Source of the DNA: a phage
DNA: 64,000 bases
Strand: one strand, 5' to 3'
Sequence record: PZ357121.2
In this document: positions 10,502 to 37,365 of the stretch, piece after piece
Layout: every line of letters begins with the position of its first letter
Position numbering within the stretch: the first letter of the stretch is position 1
Made by a program: the position numbers and the translations under genes
The notes under the pieces: generated by a model
The model's database searches: none
What the model was told of the DNA's origin: nothing
The model's input: the letters and a program-made list of their open reading frames with translations, nothing else

Positions 10502-11602
10502 TTACGCTGTGAAGATTTTATCCCACATCGCAACAACTGCATCTCGATTATACTTCTTCCATACTGCTTCAGCACGTTTAACTCGAGCTTCGTATGTGTC
10601 AGTGAATTCTAATACAGCTTTTGTGTAAAGCGCAACTACTTCTTTCTTAGGAGTAGAGGAATCAATTTCTACACGCACAGTATCTGGGTCGTATTCGAAT
10701 GTCGCATGAGGATAATCCTTAAAAACTAACTGGATTACAGGGACACCTTTAGAGATGGCTTCAATAGAACTATTCTCTACCGTACCTGTGTCAGGACACG
10801 TATTAATAAGTGCTTTAGCTGTTTTAAGACGTTCCATGATTTCACTGTGTGGAGCATCAATAATAACAGGATACTTAGCCGGTGGTGCCCATTTGCTTGG
10901 ACAGTATCCTGCACCATTTTCGCCTAGTGCTTTAATAGCTTCAAGAGCAACATCAGTACGACGCATTTTAGTGTCATAACGTTGTGCACTAATAATCAGA
11001 TCAGTCGCCGGGAGAACTTCTGGCTTTTCAGTCAAACAAATAACCGGATAATCTTCGGCTTCAAACAACGGATTTGCTCGCCAATAATCATAATCAATTT
11101 TGTCAGTCAGACCTGAAGTCATATAACAATATTTGCGTTCAAATTCACGGAAGGCTTTAGTAGGAGCATAACTCTTACCACCATTCTTATGAATTTGAAT
11201 AGTTTGGTCCCAAATTTGAACAATGCCACGAGATACCGGTTCAAATGGTGTTGCCATAAAATTCTTATGAACTTTAGAGAGACCTACGTCTTTAATTGCC
11301 TGAACGGTTAGTTTAGTCGGTTCCATAGTAACAACAAAATCGTATTCATGGATGCCGGCTAGTTCAACAATCTTACGAGCCATAGTATAACTCATACCTA
11401 GACTGAATTTAGTCAGATGACCAACAGGATGGTGTGTAACTTTCCAGTCACCAAACGTGTCATTATCAAAGCCGATATAATCAATATCAGCACCGATGGA
11501 CACAAGATATTTCAACACATTTAAATGTACTGCTTCAAGGCCACCTTGTACACGGTCAGGATTAAATGGGACTGCACGAGATGGGATAAACATAACTTTC
11601 AT
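10502..11602 (-). CDS. GT-B family glycosyltransferase (366 aa); candidate hmC-DNA glycosyl/arabinosyl transferase
   Basis: ATG ORF; C-terminal motif TGTVENSSIEAISKGVPVI fits GT4-type E-x-E/G-x-PV signature; lies between rIIA and 39 where RB69-type phages are reported to carry their hmC arabinosyltransferase (not verified). Confidence 0.7.
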   Translation of the reverse strand: MKVMFIPSRAVPFNPDRVQGGLEAVHLNVLKYLVSIGADIDYIGFDNDTFGDWKVTHHPVGHLTKFSLGMSYTMARKIVELAGIHEYDFVVTMEPTKLTVQAIKDVGLSKVHKNFMATPFEPVSRGIVQIWDQTIQIHKNGGKSYAPTKAFREFERKYCYMTSGLTDKIDYDYWRANPLFEAEDYPVICLTEKPEVLPATDLIISAQRYDTKMRRTDVALEAIKALGENGAGYCPSKWAPPAKYPVIIDAPHSEIMERLKTAKALINTCPDTGTVENSSIEAISKGVPVIQLVFKDYPHATFEYDPDTVRVEIDSSTPKKEVVALYTKAVLEFTDTYEARVKRAEAVWKKYNRDAVVAMWDKIFTA

Positions 11603-30820: not shown

Positions 30821-31369
30821 TTAACGAGCCCATTTGATAATTTCTGTAATCAAATTATTACGTTCGCTTGCATTAAATCCTATAACTTTGTTAGCACCAT
30901 CATGATTAAGTAATTGATACGTTTGGATTTCGTTATGAATTGCAAACTCTTCAAAATACGAAATGACTGTATTAAACCTGAATGAAGACAAAGTAATAAG
31001 GTCGTCTTCAAAACTTTCAGTCATTTCGTTACGTGTTAAAATAATTGTGAACACATCATGGTTTTGGCAAAGACGAACATAATCCTGTTCATAAACGTCA
31101 AGAACCGAGTCCGCATCTTGTCGAATACGTCCATAAACCCAGTTACTAATATATCCACGGTCTAACAGATAAATCTTAGTAGGGTCTAAATAATTCAACA
31201 TCGTTTCGAAACAGCCAACTTCATTTCGAGACTTAACATCGAAACGTCCATCAACTGTTCGTTTAGGGAAATCAATCTTTACATATCTTTCACTAATTTC
31301 CATTATGTCATTAATGAAAGTTGTTTTACCAGCATTATCCGGGCCATCTACTAAAATAATTTTAGCCAT
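30821..31369 (-). CDS. P-loop nucleotide kinase, thymidylate-kinase-like (182 aa)
   Basis: ATG ORF; Walker A VDGPDNAGKTT and LLDRGY (DRY-type) motif typical of Tmk-like dNMP kinases. Confidence 0.65.
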   Translation of the reverse strand: MAKIILVDGPDNAGKTTFINDIMEISERYVKIDFPKRTVDGRFDVKSRNEVGCFETMLNYLDPTKIYLLDRGYISNWVYGRIRQDADSVLDVYEQDYVRLCQNHDVFTIILTRNEMTESFEDDLITLSSFRFNTVISYFEEFAIHNEIQTYQLLNHDGANKVIGFNASERNNLITEIIKWAR

Positions 31370-31370
31370 T

Positions 31371-32270
31371 TTATTCCTCGATTACGACATCTTCATATTT
31401 AGGTATATTATACGGCGAAGAAATTAAAGCATTAAAGTAGATGAACTCGCCAAGACCTGGATGGAATACTTCTTCAGGATTTTCGAAGTATTGAATCTTC
31501 GGACGTCCTTTAAGAATTTGATAGTACTCAGTTTTAGTTGGTTTAAAAATTCGAATCAGCGCTTCTTCAGGATACTTATTTCTGTCGAAGCTATTATTTG
31601 GATCGGTTATATAAAGCGGTTGACCTAATTGAATTGCACATTCAACCACTTGTTCAAAACGATAGCACGGGTCACTAATTCGAAATGGATGAAAAATACC
31701 ATCTAGATGAATAGGAGCCAAATCACCTACAAGACGCTGCATGATGGAAGGACGTATAACTTTCTGCGTTACGATAATCTTATTACCATCTGCACCTGCG
31801 TTAACCAGCACTTCTTTTTGACGTTCATTCAACACAGTAGTTTGAAGTGAACGATTAACAGACAACATGTCGGTTTTTAAGAATTCGTCAATATAAAAAC
31901 GTGGTTTATTAGGGTCTGCAGTGATATTGAAATTGAATTCTACGTCAAAATTGCCGTCATATCCAGTGATATCTGTGATTAGAAAATCACAATCATAATA
32001 ATCAATTAATGAATCAACCACAAATTCATTTTCAGACCAGAAATATTTACGAGTGTTATATGCGTTATCTTTATACCATAATGGAACAAACTTAAATTCT
32101 GGGAAAAGACGTTCGCATTCTTTAATATCAGATGCATTACGTGGATATGTAATCACATCACCCGGATTAGCACGGTGCAAATGAAGTTGGAAGTTGCCAT
32201 CCTTAAGGATAGCATACTGTCCAGTTTCATAAGACCGCATACTCAAGATAGGTACGCGGAAAATAGCCAT
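31371..32270 (-). CDS. hypothetical protein (299 aa) at the beta-gt locus
   Basis: ATG ORF between uvsX and gene 42 where T4 has beta-glucosyltransferase; no motif recognised. Confidence 0.6.
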   Translation of the reverse strand: MAIFRVPILSMRSYETGQYAILKDGNFQLHLHRANPGDVITYPRNASDIKECERLFPEFKFVPLWYKDNAYNTRKYFWSENEFVVDSLIDYYDCDFLITDITGYDGNFDVEFNFNITADPNKPRFYIDEFLKTDMLSVNRSLQTTVLNERQKEVLVNAGADGNKIIVTQKVIRPSIMQRLVGDLAPIHLDGIFHPFRISDPCYRFEQVVECAIQLGQPLYITDPNNSFDRNKYPEEALIRIFKPTKTEYYQILKGRPKIQYFENPEEVFHPGLGEFIYFNALISSPYNIPKYEDVVIEE

Positions 32271-32986
32271 TAGTCAAGGAATCCTTTAACATAATCAAAA
32301 TCACGGTCAAACACATGGGCACTTACCATGGTATGAGTATAATCACCAACTTCTACACCACATTCTTTAGCGATATAATGAAGTAATTTTCCTTGGAGAT
32401 AAAAATCCAACTGCATAACAACAGCACAGTTCTGAGAACGCATATGACAGTGGGTATAAAGCTTACCATCACGAATATAATAAGTCACTGAGTCAGTACA
32501 TGGATATTCAAGTGTTTCGTCCGAATCAAGCAAAGCCTGATCTGAACTTTCAAGAATTTGAAACACAACTCTTCGTGAATTAGGTTTCTCTTTAAGTTCT
32601 TTGAGAAGAGCTGGTAACTGGGCCGCAATTCGTGGACCATAGAAAGTGTTGAAGTTTGCAGGCAAAGCGTCTGATTTAGGTTTAGAAATAAATTTAGCAA
32701 CGTTAGGATATGCCTTAAATGCTTCTTCTGCGTCGGTACCACCAGAAATCATAAATTTCCAGAAGTCTTCGGCATATTCATAAGAGATGCGGTTAATACG
32801 TGGGTCGGTCATTTTGAATGATGATGGAGTGTCAACAACTACTGTCATAGACCCAATTTCATTACAACGTCCAATACGAGAATCAGTTACGAATTCCGGG
32901 TTTTCTAAAATTTCACGATTGACTGCTTTAAATGCGGATTGAAAATCTGCGGCTTTGATATATTTCATTGTGTTATGTTTTCCCAT
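32270..32986 (-). CDS. 42: deoxypyrimidylate hydroxymethylase, gp42-like (238 aa)
   Basis: ATG ORF with GAGGT SD; catalytic-site region EYPCTDSVTYYIRDGKLYTHCHMRSQN resembles the CT(N/D)xVQYxIRD...MRSND core of T4 dCMP hydroxymethylase; divergent elsewhere. Confidence 0.7.
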   Translation of the reverse strand: MGKHNTMKYIKAADFQSAFKAVNREILENPEFVTDSRIGRCNEIGSMTVVVDTPSSFKMTDPRINRISYEYAEDFWKFMISGGTDAEEAFKAYPNVAKFISKPKSDALPANFNTFYGPRIAAQLPALLKELKEKPNSRRVVFQILESSDQALLDSDETLEYPCTDSVTYYIRDGKLYTHCHMRSQNCAVVMQLDFYLQGKLLHYIAKECGVEVGDYTHTMVSAHVFDRDFDYVKGFLD

Positions 32987-34476: not shown

Positions 34477-34863
34477 TTATAGATTCGGTTTATATGATTT
34501 AAATGTTTCGAATTCGCCTTTATTCATAAGAGCTTTGAATTCGTCAGGACGCATAGCTTTGTCGTCGATAATCCAATCATATACTGGTTTATGTGTTAGC
34601 AAATTATGGTACTTCAATCCAATGTTTGCCAAGTTCTGAATCAGACTTGGGAGAATGTCAATTGCTATACGACCAGGACCGACTGACTTCATACCGCGAG
34701 CAGTGTAAAGCGTTATGGTATGCCCTGCATCATACAGGGCATTAATGGCAGACACCATTTCGACGTCTGGTTTGAAGTTCACGTAATCACGATTGTTATT
34801 CCACTCTGTTATACAATCATCGACATCAAAACAAAGATTAAGCATGTTTTCTACACGGTGCAT
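34477..34863 (-). CDS. HAD-superfamily phosphatase (128 aa)
   Basis: Motif I FDVDDCIT (DxDxT) near N-terminus; start at 34863 overlaps upstream TAA (alternative ATGs at 34878 and 34845). Confidence 0.65.
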   Translation of the reverse strand: MHRVENMLNLCFDVDDCITEWNNNRDYVNFKPDVEMVSAINALYDAGHTITLYTARGMKSVGPGRIAIDILPSLIQNLANIGLKYHNLLTHKPVYDWIIDDKAMRPDEFKALMNKGEFETFKSYKPNL

Positions 34864-36548
34864 TAGATTCGTTCCCATTGATGAGTGATATCGCCACCGA
34901 TTGGACGATAAGAAACACCAGTTTCTTTATCAGTTAGTACCCATTTACCAGGATTTTTTGTAATCAGAGTAGCCGTTACAGGTTCTGCTACATCATAACT
35001 AATAGTGCCGTCCTGAAGTACACGGCCCATGTTACGTAATTGCTTAGTCAGAAGTTCCATACCTTTATAATATGCGGCTACCGCTTTAAGTGGATTATTC
35101 TTGAAATAACCACCTAATGCAATCCAGATAATTGCCACTGCCAAATGATGATACTCGTTAAACGAACTCATCTTTCCATATTTGTAAACTAACGGATTGA
35201 TGTTAATAGTCACATTACAAGTTGTTTCATCAATAGTAAACTGTCCCCAAGTCGGATTAGCGTTGAATTCATCATAACCTGAAACAGCGTAAAGCACTTT
35301 AGCTTCATCATACAATTTTGGCCCATAAATCTTGGTTTCACCAAAATATCCACGAGGGTCGATAAACTTGACTTCACCATTATCAGTAATCATAGTATTA
35401 CTGAAGTTCGGGTCACCATGAATAACAGAGTACTGTCCCTGAGAACGGTTATGATAACGAATAAGGTGTTCTAAAGCTTGTTTCAACATTGGCTTCAGAC
35501 GCCCAATCTTAGTGTAGTTCACATGTGTGATTTTACCAAATGAATCAATCAATGGTTGAATACTTTCACAACGATCAATAACTTTAGTATAGAATTCTTT
35601 AGTGAAATCACGACGAACAGTTTCAGGACTTACAAAATAAGTGTCTGTGCTGAATTTCAGTGCATCTAAAATTGCATCAACAATTTGTGGACGAGCAAGA
35701 CTTGATTTGGATTTAATATATTCAAATGCCGGCTTACCTTTAATGCGTTCCATTTCAAAGTTATTTTCATTAACAGAAACTAACTGAGGAACTGAATCTG
35801 ATTTCACTTTAAGATACCATGAAATCTCATCTTTCTGAAGAGCTCGGCCCTGTTCGGTTAATGCGAATTTAGTTACAGTTTCTTCACCAATTTCAACTGC
35901 ATTAAAACTACGATTAAGTTCACGAACTTCATGAGCTTTTTCAAGTTTAGGCATATCACCTAAATCAATTAGATTCATAAGCTCTGATTTATTGAATGCG
36001 CTGCCGTAAAGGAATTCTACGAAATCACGTCCTTTGCAGTATTCATGAATTTCCTCATCAGTAGAACCCATATAGAATTCCCAGTCTTTGAACTGATAAA
36101 TTCCTACAACATTACCACCTGTTGAACCTACATTAGTGATATTTTCACCGTCGAAATTATATCGACATTCGTCACCCTTAACATAGATTGCGTTAACATT
36201 CCAAGACCACGAACCAAAATCAGGAATAATATCACACCAGTTAACAATTACATTATGGCCGTCTAAATCTTTGTGCAATTTAGCAAGAGCATAAGCAGAA
36301 CCATACGCTTCATCAACTGTACGAATAGTCACATTGAACCCTTCTTGCTCACAATAAGCTCGAACAGTTTCAGCAAATTTTGAATGAACTACTACAATAA
36401 TTTCATCTGCGCCAAGGTCAGAATAAATTGTATACAAATTGCTCAGAATAGTGTCTTGTTTATAGTTAACAAGCACCTTAGGAATATGATGCGTTATTGG
36501 ATACAAACGAGTTGCCAGTCCAGCACCAAGAATAACAGCTTTTTTCAT
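34863..36548 (-). CDS. bifunctional sugar-1-phosphate nucleotidyltransferase / sugar kinase (561 aa)
   Basis: N-terminus MKKAVILGAGLATRL is the nucleotidyltransferase G-x-G-x-R signature; C-terminal IHGDPNFSNTMIT is an APH/choline-kinase-type catalytic loop. Confidence 0.75.
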   Translation of the reverse strand: MKKAVILGAGLATRLYPITHHIPKVLVNYKQDTILSNLYTIYSDLGADEIIVVVHSKFAETVRAYCEQEGFNVTIRTVDEAYGSAYALAKLHKDLDGHNVIVNWCDIIPDFGSWSWNVNAIYVKGDECRYNFDGENITNVGSTGGNVVGIYQFKDWEFYMGSTDEEIHEYCKGRDFVEFLYGSAFNKSELMNLIDLGDMPKLEKAHEVRELNRSFNAVEIGEETVTKFALTEQGRALQKDEISWYLKVKSDSVPQLVSVNENNFEMERIKGKPAFEYIKSKSSLARPQIVDAILDALKFSTDTYFVSPETVRRDFTKEFYTKVIDRCESIQPLIDSFGKITHVNYTKIGRLKPMLKQALEHLIRYHNRSQGQYSVIHGDPNFSNTMITDNGEVKFIDPRGYFGETKIYGPKLYDEAKVLYAVSGYDEFNANPTWGQFTIDETTCNVTININPLVYKYGKMSSFNEYHHLAVAIIWIALGGYFKNNPLKAVAAYYKGMELLTKQLRNMGRVLQDGTISYDVAEPVTATLITKNPGKWVLTDKETGVSYRPIGGDITHQWERI

Positions 36549-36589: not shown

Positions 36590-36733
36590 CTAGTTAAAGC
36601 ATTCATACTTTGCTTGTAGTCCAATCATAATCCATCCGATTATAAGAGTCGGAATCATTACTGGAGCCGTTAAGCTCCAGTAGATAGTCATGACAAGCAT
36701 CAATAGTAAAAGTCCTATTGTTATTGCTTTCAT
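36590..36733 (-). CDS. small membrane peptide (47 aa, 2 TM)
   Basis: ORF below cutoff; ATG overlaps SIS gene TGA (ATGA coupling); hydrophobic. Confidence 0.45.
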   Translation of the reverse strand: MKAITIGLLLLMLVMTIYWSLTAPVMIPTLIIGWIMIGLQAKYECFN

Positions 36734-37365
36734 TGTTCGCCTCGTAACATGGCACCTAGTGCACCACCAGGGTGGAACTTAAGGAAGTCATTAGAGGTAA
36801 ATCCACGTTCAGACGAAAGGTTGATAGCAAACGTATCGATAAGCGCTAACAACAATGTAGTGGACATGGTCGGAGCCAGAGAATTCTCATCAACCTCTAC
36901 TGCGATGCCTGTACAGAACGTATAATCAAAAAGAGCTTCGTATTCTTGTGGAATGTCCGGGTTACAATGCAACAGAATCTGTTTGACGTTCGGACGAATC
37001 ATTTTAAGATGCTTAGCCACGCCTATCATTTCTTCAGTTTTACCAGAACGACTAATATGAATCAACACATCATTAGGCGCAATGAATCCTGCATCACCGT
37101 GAGAATAATGCCCAGTGTTCAAGTACATACTCGGGATACCAAGTGAAGCAAATGTCTCAGAAGCTTTAGTTGCAATATTAGCATTCTTACCAACACCTGT
37201 AATAATTACTCGGCTTTCATAATTACTAAGTCCTGGGCGTCGAAGAGTTTCTAGAATAGCATTATAACGAGCAGGGTTTTGACTAATTACTTTGGCCATA
37301 GCGGCCAAAGAAGAAGCTTGTTTTATGATTGCGTCAATAGCGATAGTAATAGGAGTAGTTTTCAT
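36730..37365 (-). CDS. SIS-domain sugar-phosphate isomerase (211 aa)
   Basis: ATG ORF; SIS signatures GVGKNANIA and HISRSGKTEEM as in GmhA/KdsD-type isomerases. Confidence 0.75.
   Translation of the reverse strand: MKTTPITIAIDAIIKQASSLAAMAKVISQNPARYNAILETLRRPGLSNYESRVIITGVGKNANIATKASETFASLGIPSMYLNTGHYSHGDAGFIAPNDVLIHISRSGKTEEMIGVAKHLKMIRPNVKQILLHCNPDIPQEYEALFDYTFCTGIAVEVDENSLAPTMSTTLLLALIDTFAINLSSERGFTSNDFLKFHPGGALGAMLRGEQ

Follow-up and report, generated by a model that had tools for sequence, protein, structure and literature searches.

Several enzymes that activate sugars or alcohols for transfer combine a kinase and a nucleotidyltransferase (NT). The ADP-L-glycero-D-manno-heptose pathway uses the SIS isomerase GmhA to form a sugar omega-phosphate, the bifunctional enzyme HldE as a kinase at C1, the HAD phosphatase GmhB to take off the distal phosphate, and HldE again, through its second domain, for the addition of the nucleotide. 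Treponema denticola has a LicCA fusion in which the transferase precedes the kinase. Here we describe a gene with this same domain order, encoding a protein of 561 amino acids (aa), in a 64,000-nucleotide stretch of phage DNA (sequence record PZ357121.2, hereafter the window). Its product, the NT-kinase, is very likely the bifunctional enzyme with which RB69-like (Mosigvirus) phages activate the sugar for the arabinosyl-5-hydroxycytosine modification of their DNA.

The closest described systems are those of the phages RB69 and HY126. Thomas et al. 2018 re-sequenced the RB69 gene, showed that the open reading frames (ORFs) 053c and 052c form one 561-residue protein, ORF53_52c, which on expression gave a single band at the size predicted, and put it forward as a candidate for uridine diphosphate (UDP)-arabinose synthesis (PMC6024577). 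RB69 DNA bears beta-D-arabinofuranosyl-(1-3)-alpha-D-arabinofuranosyl-5-hydroxydeoxycytidine; the ThyA homologue gp48 has been shown experimentally to make 5-hydroxydeoxycytidine monophosphate (5-hydroxy-dCMP), and the gp55 isomerase, gp52:53, and the gp51 HAD phosphatase were proposed to turn ribulose 5-phosphate into nucleoside diphosphate (NDP)-arabinofuranose (PMC13326640). The same paper equates gp52:53 with AfhE of the Escherichia coli phage HY126, which, in the part of He et al. 2026 that it relays, has the same two-domain architecture and the same partners as those found here (the HAD phosphatase AfhF, an arabinose 5-phosphate isomerase, a 5-hydroxy-dCMP synthase, and arabinosyltransferases). 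According to this account, the AfhE kinase converts D-arabinose 5-phosphate (Ara5P) into arabinose-1,5-bisphosphate, the Mg-dependent phosphatase AfhF converts the latter into arabinose-1-phosphate, and AfhE has both activities, including that of UDP-arabinofuranose pyrophosphorylase, in a route that runs from ribulose 5-phosphate through Ara5P, arabinose-1,5-bisphosphate, and arabinose-1-phosphate to UDP-arabinofuranose. Phages Bas46 and Bas47 are among those listed with arabinosylated 5-hydroxycytosine DNA (PMC13326640), and Mosigvirus NP carries mono- and di-arabinosylated deoxycytidine (PMC13390438). The NT-kinase is already described, in a pathway published between 2018 and 2026: the original prediction was right that such a fusion does not occur among T4 proteins, since it lies in an eight-gene module without T4 homologues (Thomas et al. 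2018, PMC6024577), but the fusion was not new, having been described for RB69 in 2018 and its homologue's biochemistry reported in 2026.

The gene of the window is an intact ORF with an ATG start and a GAGGA ribosome-binding site 7 nt upstream. The surrounding DNA is that of a T4-like phage from the RB69 group (Mosigvirus), in which uvsX, the gene 43 DNA polymerase, regA, and the clamp loader are arranged as in T4. The NT-kinase is identical in 558 of 561 aa (99.5%) to the frameshift-corrected ORF53_52c of RB69, from which it differs by the three substitutions H92Y, Q233H, and T515S, and our alignment of the window with the RB69 GenBank record gave 97.6% nucleotide identity. The single indel in this alignment is an extra C in the RB69 record, because of which the gene is split there into two ORFs whereas it is whole in the window; this extra base fits the single-base error C-29116 of Thomas et al. 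2018 (PMC6024577). A protein of Shigella phage phi25-307 is 100% identical to the NT-kinase, which is found at 99% identity or more in 135 phage records, and phages ChristianSchoenbein and AlbertHofmann (the latter bearing the strain label Bas47 in PMC13390438) encode proteins with 99.1-99.3% identity, both of which carry in public records the description ‘putative enzyme involved in UDP-arabinose biosynthesis’. The remaining E. coli phage homologues are either at least 94% or about 42-43% identical to it. PHROG 4098, labelled ‘unknown function’, matches the protein over its full length (E 4.6e-295), and the records examined for close relatives call them hypothetical, ‘GlmU’, ‘mannose-1-phosphate guanyltransferase’, or ‘capsular polysaccharide’. 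These labels are misleading, and we ruled out the GlmU, mannose-1-phosphate guanylyltransferase, and capsule names as meaningful assignments, as they rest on the N-terminal 100 residues common to all such transferases.

The original prediction of an N-terminal sugar-1-phosphate NT joined to a kinase of the aminoglycoside/choline-kinase type was borne out by domain annotation and structure modeling, which recovered the two named folds and not unrelated ones. In the N-terminal domain, the Pfam NTP_transferase family (PF00483) matches residues 3-99 with a score of 39.1 bits (cut-off 21.2, E 8.5e-10), spanning only positions 1-101 of the 245 in the profile. Foldseek comparison of the model with the PDB aligned its N-terminal 220-260 residues, at a probability of 1.0, with HddC (5xhw), MurU (4y7u), RmlA, LicC (1jyl), and GDP-mannose pyrophosphorylases, with TM-target values of 0.61-0.67 over 220-260 columns for HddC, MurU, and LicC. 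A profile search of the PDB sequences gave the heptose-1-phosphate guanylyltransferase HddC as its best match (E 1.7e-14), and a single-sequence search the CTP:phosphocholine cytidylyltransferase LicC (E 2e-5); in both, the matches were NT domains only, with no solved AfhE-like structure and no kinase relative. The full alpha/beta NT fold is present together with its conserved acidic residues. The G-x-G-x-R signature noticed in the original prediction reads G8-A-G10-L-A12-T-R14, followed by P23-K24, and G10, R14, and K24 occur in 72 of the 73 sequences of our homologue alignment, which share 28-75% identity. The glycine usual ahead of T-R is an alanine in the NT-kinase, this position being A in 43 homologues, S in 18, and G in 11. 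W104, D106, D195, G197, D198, and K201 are invariant, and D106, D195, and D198 presumably act as metal ligands.

The region that follows adopts a bilobal kinase fold (aa 206-510). Foldseek matched the C-terminal part of the protein to APH(2'')-IIa in the PDB, and the nearest fold relatives of the kinase domain include NahK, maltokinase, and methylthioribose kinase. Pfam kinase families matched the protein at about residues 308-409 below their thresholds in all cases (APH, PF01636, 14.4 bits against 23.2; Fructosamin_kin, 17.1 against 22.4; EcKL, 16.2 against 22; RIO1, 16.1 against 22), and a PF01636 match is precomputed for some of the homologues. The predicted HGD catalytic loop is H377-G378-D379, part of an H-x-D-x4-N motif in which H377 is found in 72 of the 73 homologues and G378, D379, and N384 in all of them, as are the metal-binding D397 and the ATP-anchoring pair K227/E241. 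The block I396-D397-P398-R399-G400 is invariant or nearly so, and the kinase lobe contains the invariant basic residues R213, K322, R326, R399, K417, and K483/K488, which would suit an anionic, phosphorylated substrate. Beyond the kinase, the short C-terminal tail has strands at 546-549 and 558-560 (DSSP; predicted local distance difference test score, pLDDT, 81-90). This tail is conserved in the T4-like phage loci, and distant matches in IMG/VR mostly stop at query residues 499-508.

The AlphaFold2 model built from the homologue alignment has a pLDDT of 94.5, with values above 94 for both domains, and a predicted template modeling score of 0.91. An NT domain followed by a kinase domain in one polypeptide is the arrangement of AfhE, and both active sites look intact, judging from the invariance or near-invariance of their catalytic residues across the homologues. 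Between uvsX and gene 43, the minus strand carries all the genes of the pathway cluster, and the position and neighbors of the NT-kinase gene are those that it has in RB69; the second proposed arabinosyltransferase is encoded apart, at 10505-11602 (Table 1). Within 6 kb of the NT-kinase gene and on the same strand are found homologues of the isomerase, the HAD phosphatase, the 5-hydroxy-dCMP synthase, and a candidate arabinosyltransferase. Similar company is seen elsewhere: among 79 IMG/VR loci encoding a relative of the NT-kinase, with neighbors counted within the same distance, the HAD phosphatase accompanies it in 54, the SIS isomerase in 49, and the ThyA homologue in 33.

Table 1. Features of the window related to the NT-kinase and its proposed pathway
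Feature	Coordinates	Strand	Basis
NT-kinase gene, 561 aa; orthologue of RB69 ORF53_52c (gp52:53), counterpart of HY126 AfhE	34863..36548	-	ORF, ATG start
N-terminal domain, aa 1-205, sugar-1-phosphate nucleotidyltransferase; predicted UDP-D-arabinofuranose pyrophosphorylase	35934..36548	-	Pfam PF00483, Foldseek, PDB profile search, conserved residues
Central/C-terminal domain, aa 206-510, choline-kinase/APH-fold kinase; predicted D-arabinose-5-phosphate 1-kinase	35019..35933	-	
C-terminal tail, aa 511-561, short beta-rich extension	34866..35018	-	DSSP, pLDDT 81-90
SIS-domain D-arabinose-5-phosphate isomerase (RB69 gp55), upstream of the NT-kinase gene	36730..37365	-	Pfam SIS; PHROG 5670, E 2e-116
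HAD-type phosphatase (RB69 gp51, AfhF counterpart); predicted arabinose-1,5-bisphosphate 5-phosphatase	34477..34878	-	PHROG 1238, E 5e-43; TIGR01689, E 4e-13
U32-family protein (RB69 gp50), 386 aa	33262..34422	-	Pfam Peptidase_U32, E 6e-11
Thymidylate-synthase homologue (RB69 gp48), 5-hydroxy-dCMP synthase, makes the acceptor base	32270..32986	-	Pfam Thymidylat_synt
Putative DNA arabinosyltransferase 1 (RB69 gp46:47), intact 299-aa ORF	31371..32270	-	PHROG 3891
Thymidylate-kinase-like nucleotide kinase (RB69 gp45)	30821..31369	-	PHROG 761, E 4e-45; RB69 annotation
Putative arabinosyltransferase 2 (RB69 gp3/ORF003c homologue)	10505..11602	-	tblastn, 98.9% identity over 366 aa

Our assignment joins what we observed in the window (the two folds, the intact catalytic motifs, the orthology with ORF53_52c of RB69, and the gene neighborhood) to activities reported for the HY126 homologue and to the arabinosylated DNA of RB69, and of Bas46 and Bas47 as cited in PMC13326640; we infer that the NT-kinase shares the substrates of AfhE. 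In the proposed pathway, the SIS isomerase encoded upstream would convert ribulose 5-phosphate from the host into Ara5P, the anomeric C1 hydroxyl of which would be phosphorylated by the kinase domain (aa 206-510) with ATP, yielding arabinofuranose-1,5-bisphosphate. Removal of the 5-phosphate would then fall to the HAD phosphatase, the ATG of which overlaps the end of the NT-kinase gene at its stop codon, and the NT domain (aa 1-205) would combine arabinofuranose-1-phosphate with UTP into UDP-D-arabinofuranose and pyrophosphate. The two phage glycosyltransferases would finally place arabinose on 5-hydroxycytosine in DNA, the acceptor base having been made as 5-hydroxy-dCMP by the ThyA homologue. 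By acting on Ara5P and not on free arabinose, the kinase would lock the sugar in the furanose ring found on the DNA. Of the four reactions, the kinase and NT domains would thus catalyze the second and the fourth, the step between them belonging to another enzyme, the phosphatase, an arrangement that argues against simple channeling between the fused domains.

Some points weigh against this assignment. The enzyme activities belong to the HY126 homologue and come second-hand, through the part of that work relayed in PMC13326640, and the link between AfhE and the protein of the window rests on that paper equating AfhE with gp52:53, to which the latter is 99.5% identical; substrate order or nucleotide specificity might differ between the two. 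The closest solved relatives of the NT domain use different nucleotides (GTP in HddC, CTP in LicC, UTP in MurU, and dTTP in RmlA), from which UTP is not deducible, and no SIS isomerase was detectable within 6 kb in the Dhakavirus-type loci at 42-44% identity or in that of phage JS10. Moreover, Table 1 of PMC13326640 gives another order, with the phosphatase first (‘dephosphorylates Araf5p to Ara’) and the kinase working on free arabinose (‘phosphorylates Ara to Araf1p’). On that route, the HAD phosphatase would strip Ara5P to free D-arabinose, the kinase would phosphorylate its C1, and the NT domain would take arabinose-1-phosphate directly, with possible channeling as in Fkp or AmgK/MurU. We consider this order improbable, although fusions of consecutive enzymes are the commoner pattern and the fold relatives of the kinase named above include anomeric kinases of unphosphorylated sugars or their analogues. 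Free arabinose is mostly a pyranose whereas Ara5P would, on chemical grounds, be held as the furanose present in DNA, the many invariant basic residues of the kinase lobe would fit an anionic substrate, and the same logic of isomerase, kinase, phosphatase, and NT operates in the ADP-heptose pathway with HldE and GmhB. The main text of PMC13326640, in the passages citing the AfhE and AfhF biochemistry, also orders the intermediates as Ara5P, arabinose-1,5-bisphosphate, and arabinose-1-phosphate.

A different product is less probable still. The enzyme could use a CDP, GDP, or dTDP carrier or another sugar or alcohol phosphate (for example heptose), or it could activate phosphocholine as LicC/LicA do, for a purpose other than DNA arabinosylation. 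The top relatives in the PDB sequence searches, LicC and HddC, would agree with such a role, as would the GlmU, mannose-1-phosphate guanylyltransferase, and capsular-polysaccharide labels of public records, and jumbo-phage loci and that of cyanophage S-SRM01 have the gene among glycan genes with no ThyA homologue. However, these labels were carried over automatically on the strength of the N-terminal 100 residues alone, the NT-kinase gene of the window has neither heptose nor choline genes nearby and lies between the genes for an Ara5P isomerase and a 5-hydroxy-dCMP synthase, and the DNA of RB69 and Mosigvirus NP contains arabinose (PMC13326640, PMC13390438). We give hardly any credence to the idea that a single domain is active, the other being a degenerate scaffold or a regulatory module. 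Although the Pfam kinase models score under their cut-offs and the NTP_transferase model covers its first 100 positions only, the expected catalytic residues of both folds are invariant or nearly so at 28-75% identity, both domains are modeled with high pLDDT, and both activities have been reported for AfhE in the account of PMC13326640.

Comparison with other bifunctional enzymes helps to situate this protein. The original prediction likened it to Fkp-type salvage enzymes with channeling from a sugar to its 1-phosphate and on to the NDP-sugar. The existence of a bifunctional enzyme of NDP-sugar synthesis stood, and the literature on RB69 and AfhE supports this role and makes arabinose the right sugar, with Ara5P among the substrates that the prediction had suggested (PMC13326640). 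By contrast, the kinase substrate is Ara5P, proposed to be made de novo from ribulose 5-phosphate, so that salvage does not apply, nor do consecutive steps, as AfhF acts between the two domain reactions in the part of the AfhE work relayed there (PMC13326640). Fkp, the Bacteroides L-fucokinase/GDP-fucose pyrophosphorylase, resembles the NT-kinase in its N-terminal pyrophosphorylase, its C-terminal anomeric kinase, and its NDP-sugar product, but it has a GHMP kinase and a pyrophosphorylase of another family, and it salvages a free sugar in consecutive steps. Membership in the Fkp family was rejected: the Pfam matches at E-values up to 0.1 include neither a GHMP-kinase nor a fucose-pyrophosphorylase family, and the kinase has the choline-kinase/APH fold. 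The closest functional parallel is the HldE/GmhB/GmhA pathway, which follows the same logic by analogy and not by homology, since the folds of HldE are unrelated (a PfkB/ribokinase-type kinase and a cytidylyltransferase-type adenylyltransferase), its domain order is reversed, and its substrate is a heptose and not a pentofuranose. The absence of PfkB and CTP_transf_like families among the Pfam matches of the NT-kinase led us to reject membership in this family as well. In fold, the closest parallels are LicC/LicA and MurU/AmgK, although these pairs and LicCA share only 12-20% sequence identity with the NT-kinase and catalyze consecutive steps on unphosphorylated choline or N-acetylmuramic acid with no phosphatase between.

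Several neighbors deserve comment. The SIS isomerase matches the NCBIfam models KpsF/GutQ (E 2e-32) and KdsD (E 1e-30), both under their equivalog cut-offs. Translation of the HAD phosphatase probably begins with the ATG at 34863-34861, in overlap with the TAA stop of the NT-kinase gene (TAATG), and the protein matches the NCBIfam model ‘capsule biosynthesis phosphatase’ (TIGR01689). PHROG 1238 and several GenBank records (RB69p051, JS10 EpJS10_0041) label it ‘phosphoheptose isomerase’, which is probably a propagated misannotation; we found no SIS or isomerase signature in this protein. Arabinosyltransferase 1 is divided into ORF046c and ORF047c in the RB69 GenBank record, a split put down to a sequencing error (PMC13326640), and its undivided ORF in the window supports this explanation. 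The arabinosyltransferase role of gp3/ORF003c has been proposed before (Thomas et al. 2018, PMC6024577; PMC13326640), and arabinosyltransferase 2 would draw on the same UDP-arabinose. A scan for sigma-70 promoters and terminators over 30.5-37.6 kb found such sites no more frequently than in shuffled sequence.

Another gene of the cluster encodes a homologue of RB69 gp50 from the U32 family, which includes the O2-independent hydroxylases RlhA (rRNA 5-hydroxycytidine), TrhP, and UbiU/V; RlhA and TrhP are pyrimidine C5-hydroxylases. Its Cys-rich motifs are FCSNAGKGYTTHCSYRDSC and, close to the C-terminus, CANEICGTTCTYC. Many loci have a strongly conserved U32 homologue next to the NT-kinase gene. 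The protein could provide an anaerobic route to 5-hydroxycytosine. In eight loci (L071-L075, L079, L083, and L084), a U32 homologue (1e-108 to 1e-119) neighbors the NT-kinase gene, no ThyA homologue being present up to 6 kb away, and in one more (L078) it is present (1e-126) with only a weak ThyA match. In PMC13326640, gp50 is labelled ‘sugar or heterocycle reductase’, and U32, RlhA, and TrhP are not mentioned.

Beyond the Mosigvirus phages, Dhakavirus-type loci (L024-L030, L034, L036, and L052) and that of phage JS10 (L007) retain the NT-kinase, HAD phosphatase, ThyA homologue, glycosyltransferase, and thymidylate-kinase-like genes, and these phages may rely on the host KdsD/GutQ for Ara5P. 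JS10 has an unannotated 166-aa ORF in the position of the SIS isomerase. In more distant relatives, often from giant-virus metagenome bins (GVMAG), the same ORF also encodes the phosphatase at 16 loci and the isomerase at four. HAD-SIS-NTP_transferase-kinase polypeptides of 890-955 aa, about 30-35% identical to the NT-kinase and recognized with Pfam, occur at L002 (8001-10781, P0084), L045, L046, L063, L065, and other GVMAG loci, and one such four-domain fusion adjoins genes for RNA polymerase Rpb2, RNA_pol_N, and MutS-HNH, typical giant-virus content. As a Rosetta-stone link, these fusions argue for one pathway shared by the four activities. Other variants carry the HAD domain only, or a C-terminal cupin or mannose-6-phosphate-isomerase-like domain (P0106, P0111). 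Leaving aside He et al. 2026 and Mahler et al. 2025, the literature examined makes no mention of the giant-virus fusions; the gene TetV_403 of TetV-1, annotated as an arabinose 5-phosphate isomerase, is expressed early. Synechococcus phage S-SRM01 keeps the order of the SIS, NT-kinase, and phosphatase genes (L005, 5411-7823), which are surrounded by at least six glycosyl- or fucosyltransferases as well as nucleotide-sugar epimerases and do not adjoin a ThyA homologue, which suggests that this cassette serves a non-DNA glycan.

In the RB69-like phages, the DNA hypermodification fed by the NT-kinase would be mono- and di-arabinosyl-5-hydroxycytosine. DNA of this type withstands several of the tested restriction enzymes and is itself a target of type IV systems, BrxU among them (PMC13326640, PMC13390438), so that the pathway bears on the choice of phages for therapy as well as on the enzymatic synthesis of UDP-arabinofuranose. 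The single-polypeptide pathway of giant viruses and the conserved U32 gene may be worth more than the finding on the NT-kinase itself. We regard as a tentative and rather doubtful possibility that the cassette is a general viral module for making a furanose-locked NDP-sugar, reaching past DNA arabinosylation in T4-like phages; if so, in the giant-virus, cyanophage, and jumbo-phage loci its product may go into glycans of the capsid or the host surface, or serve to modify another base.

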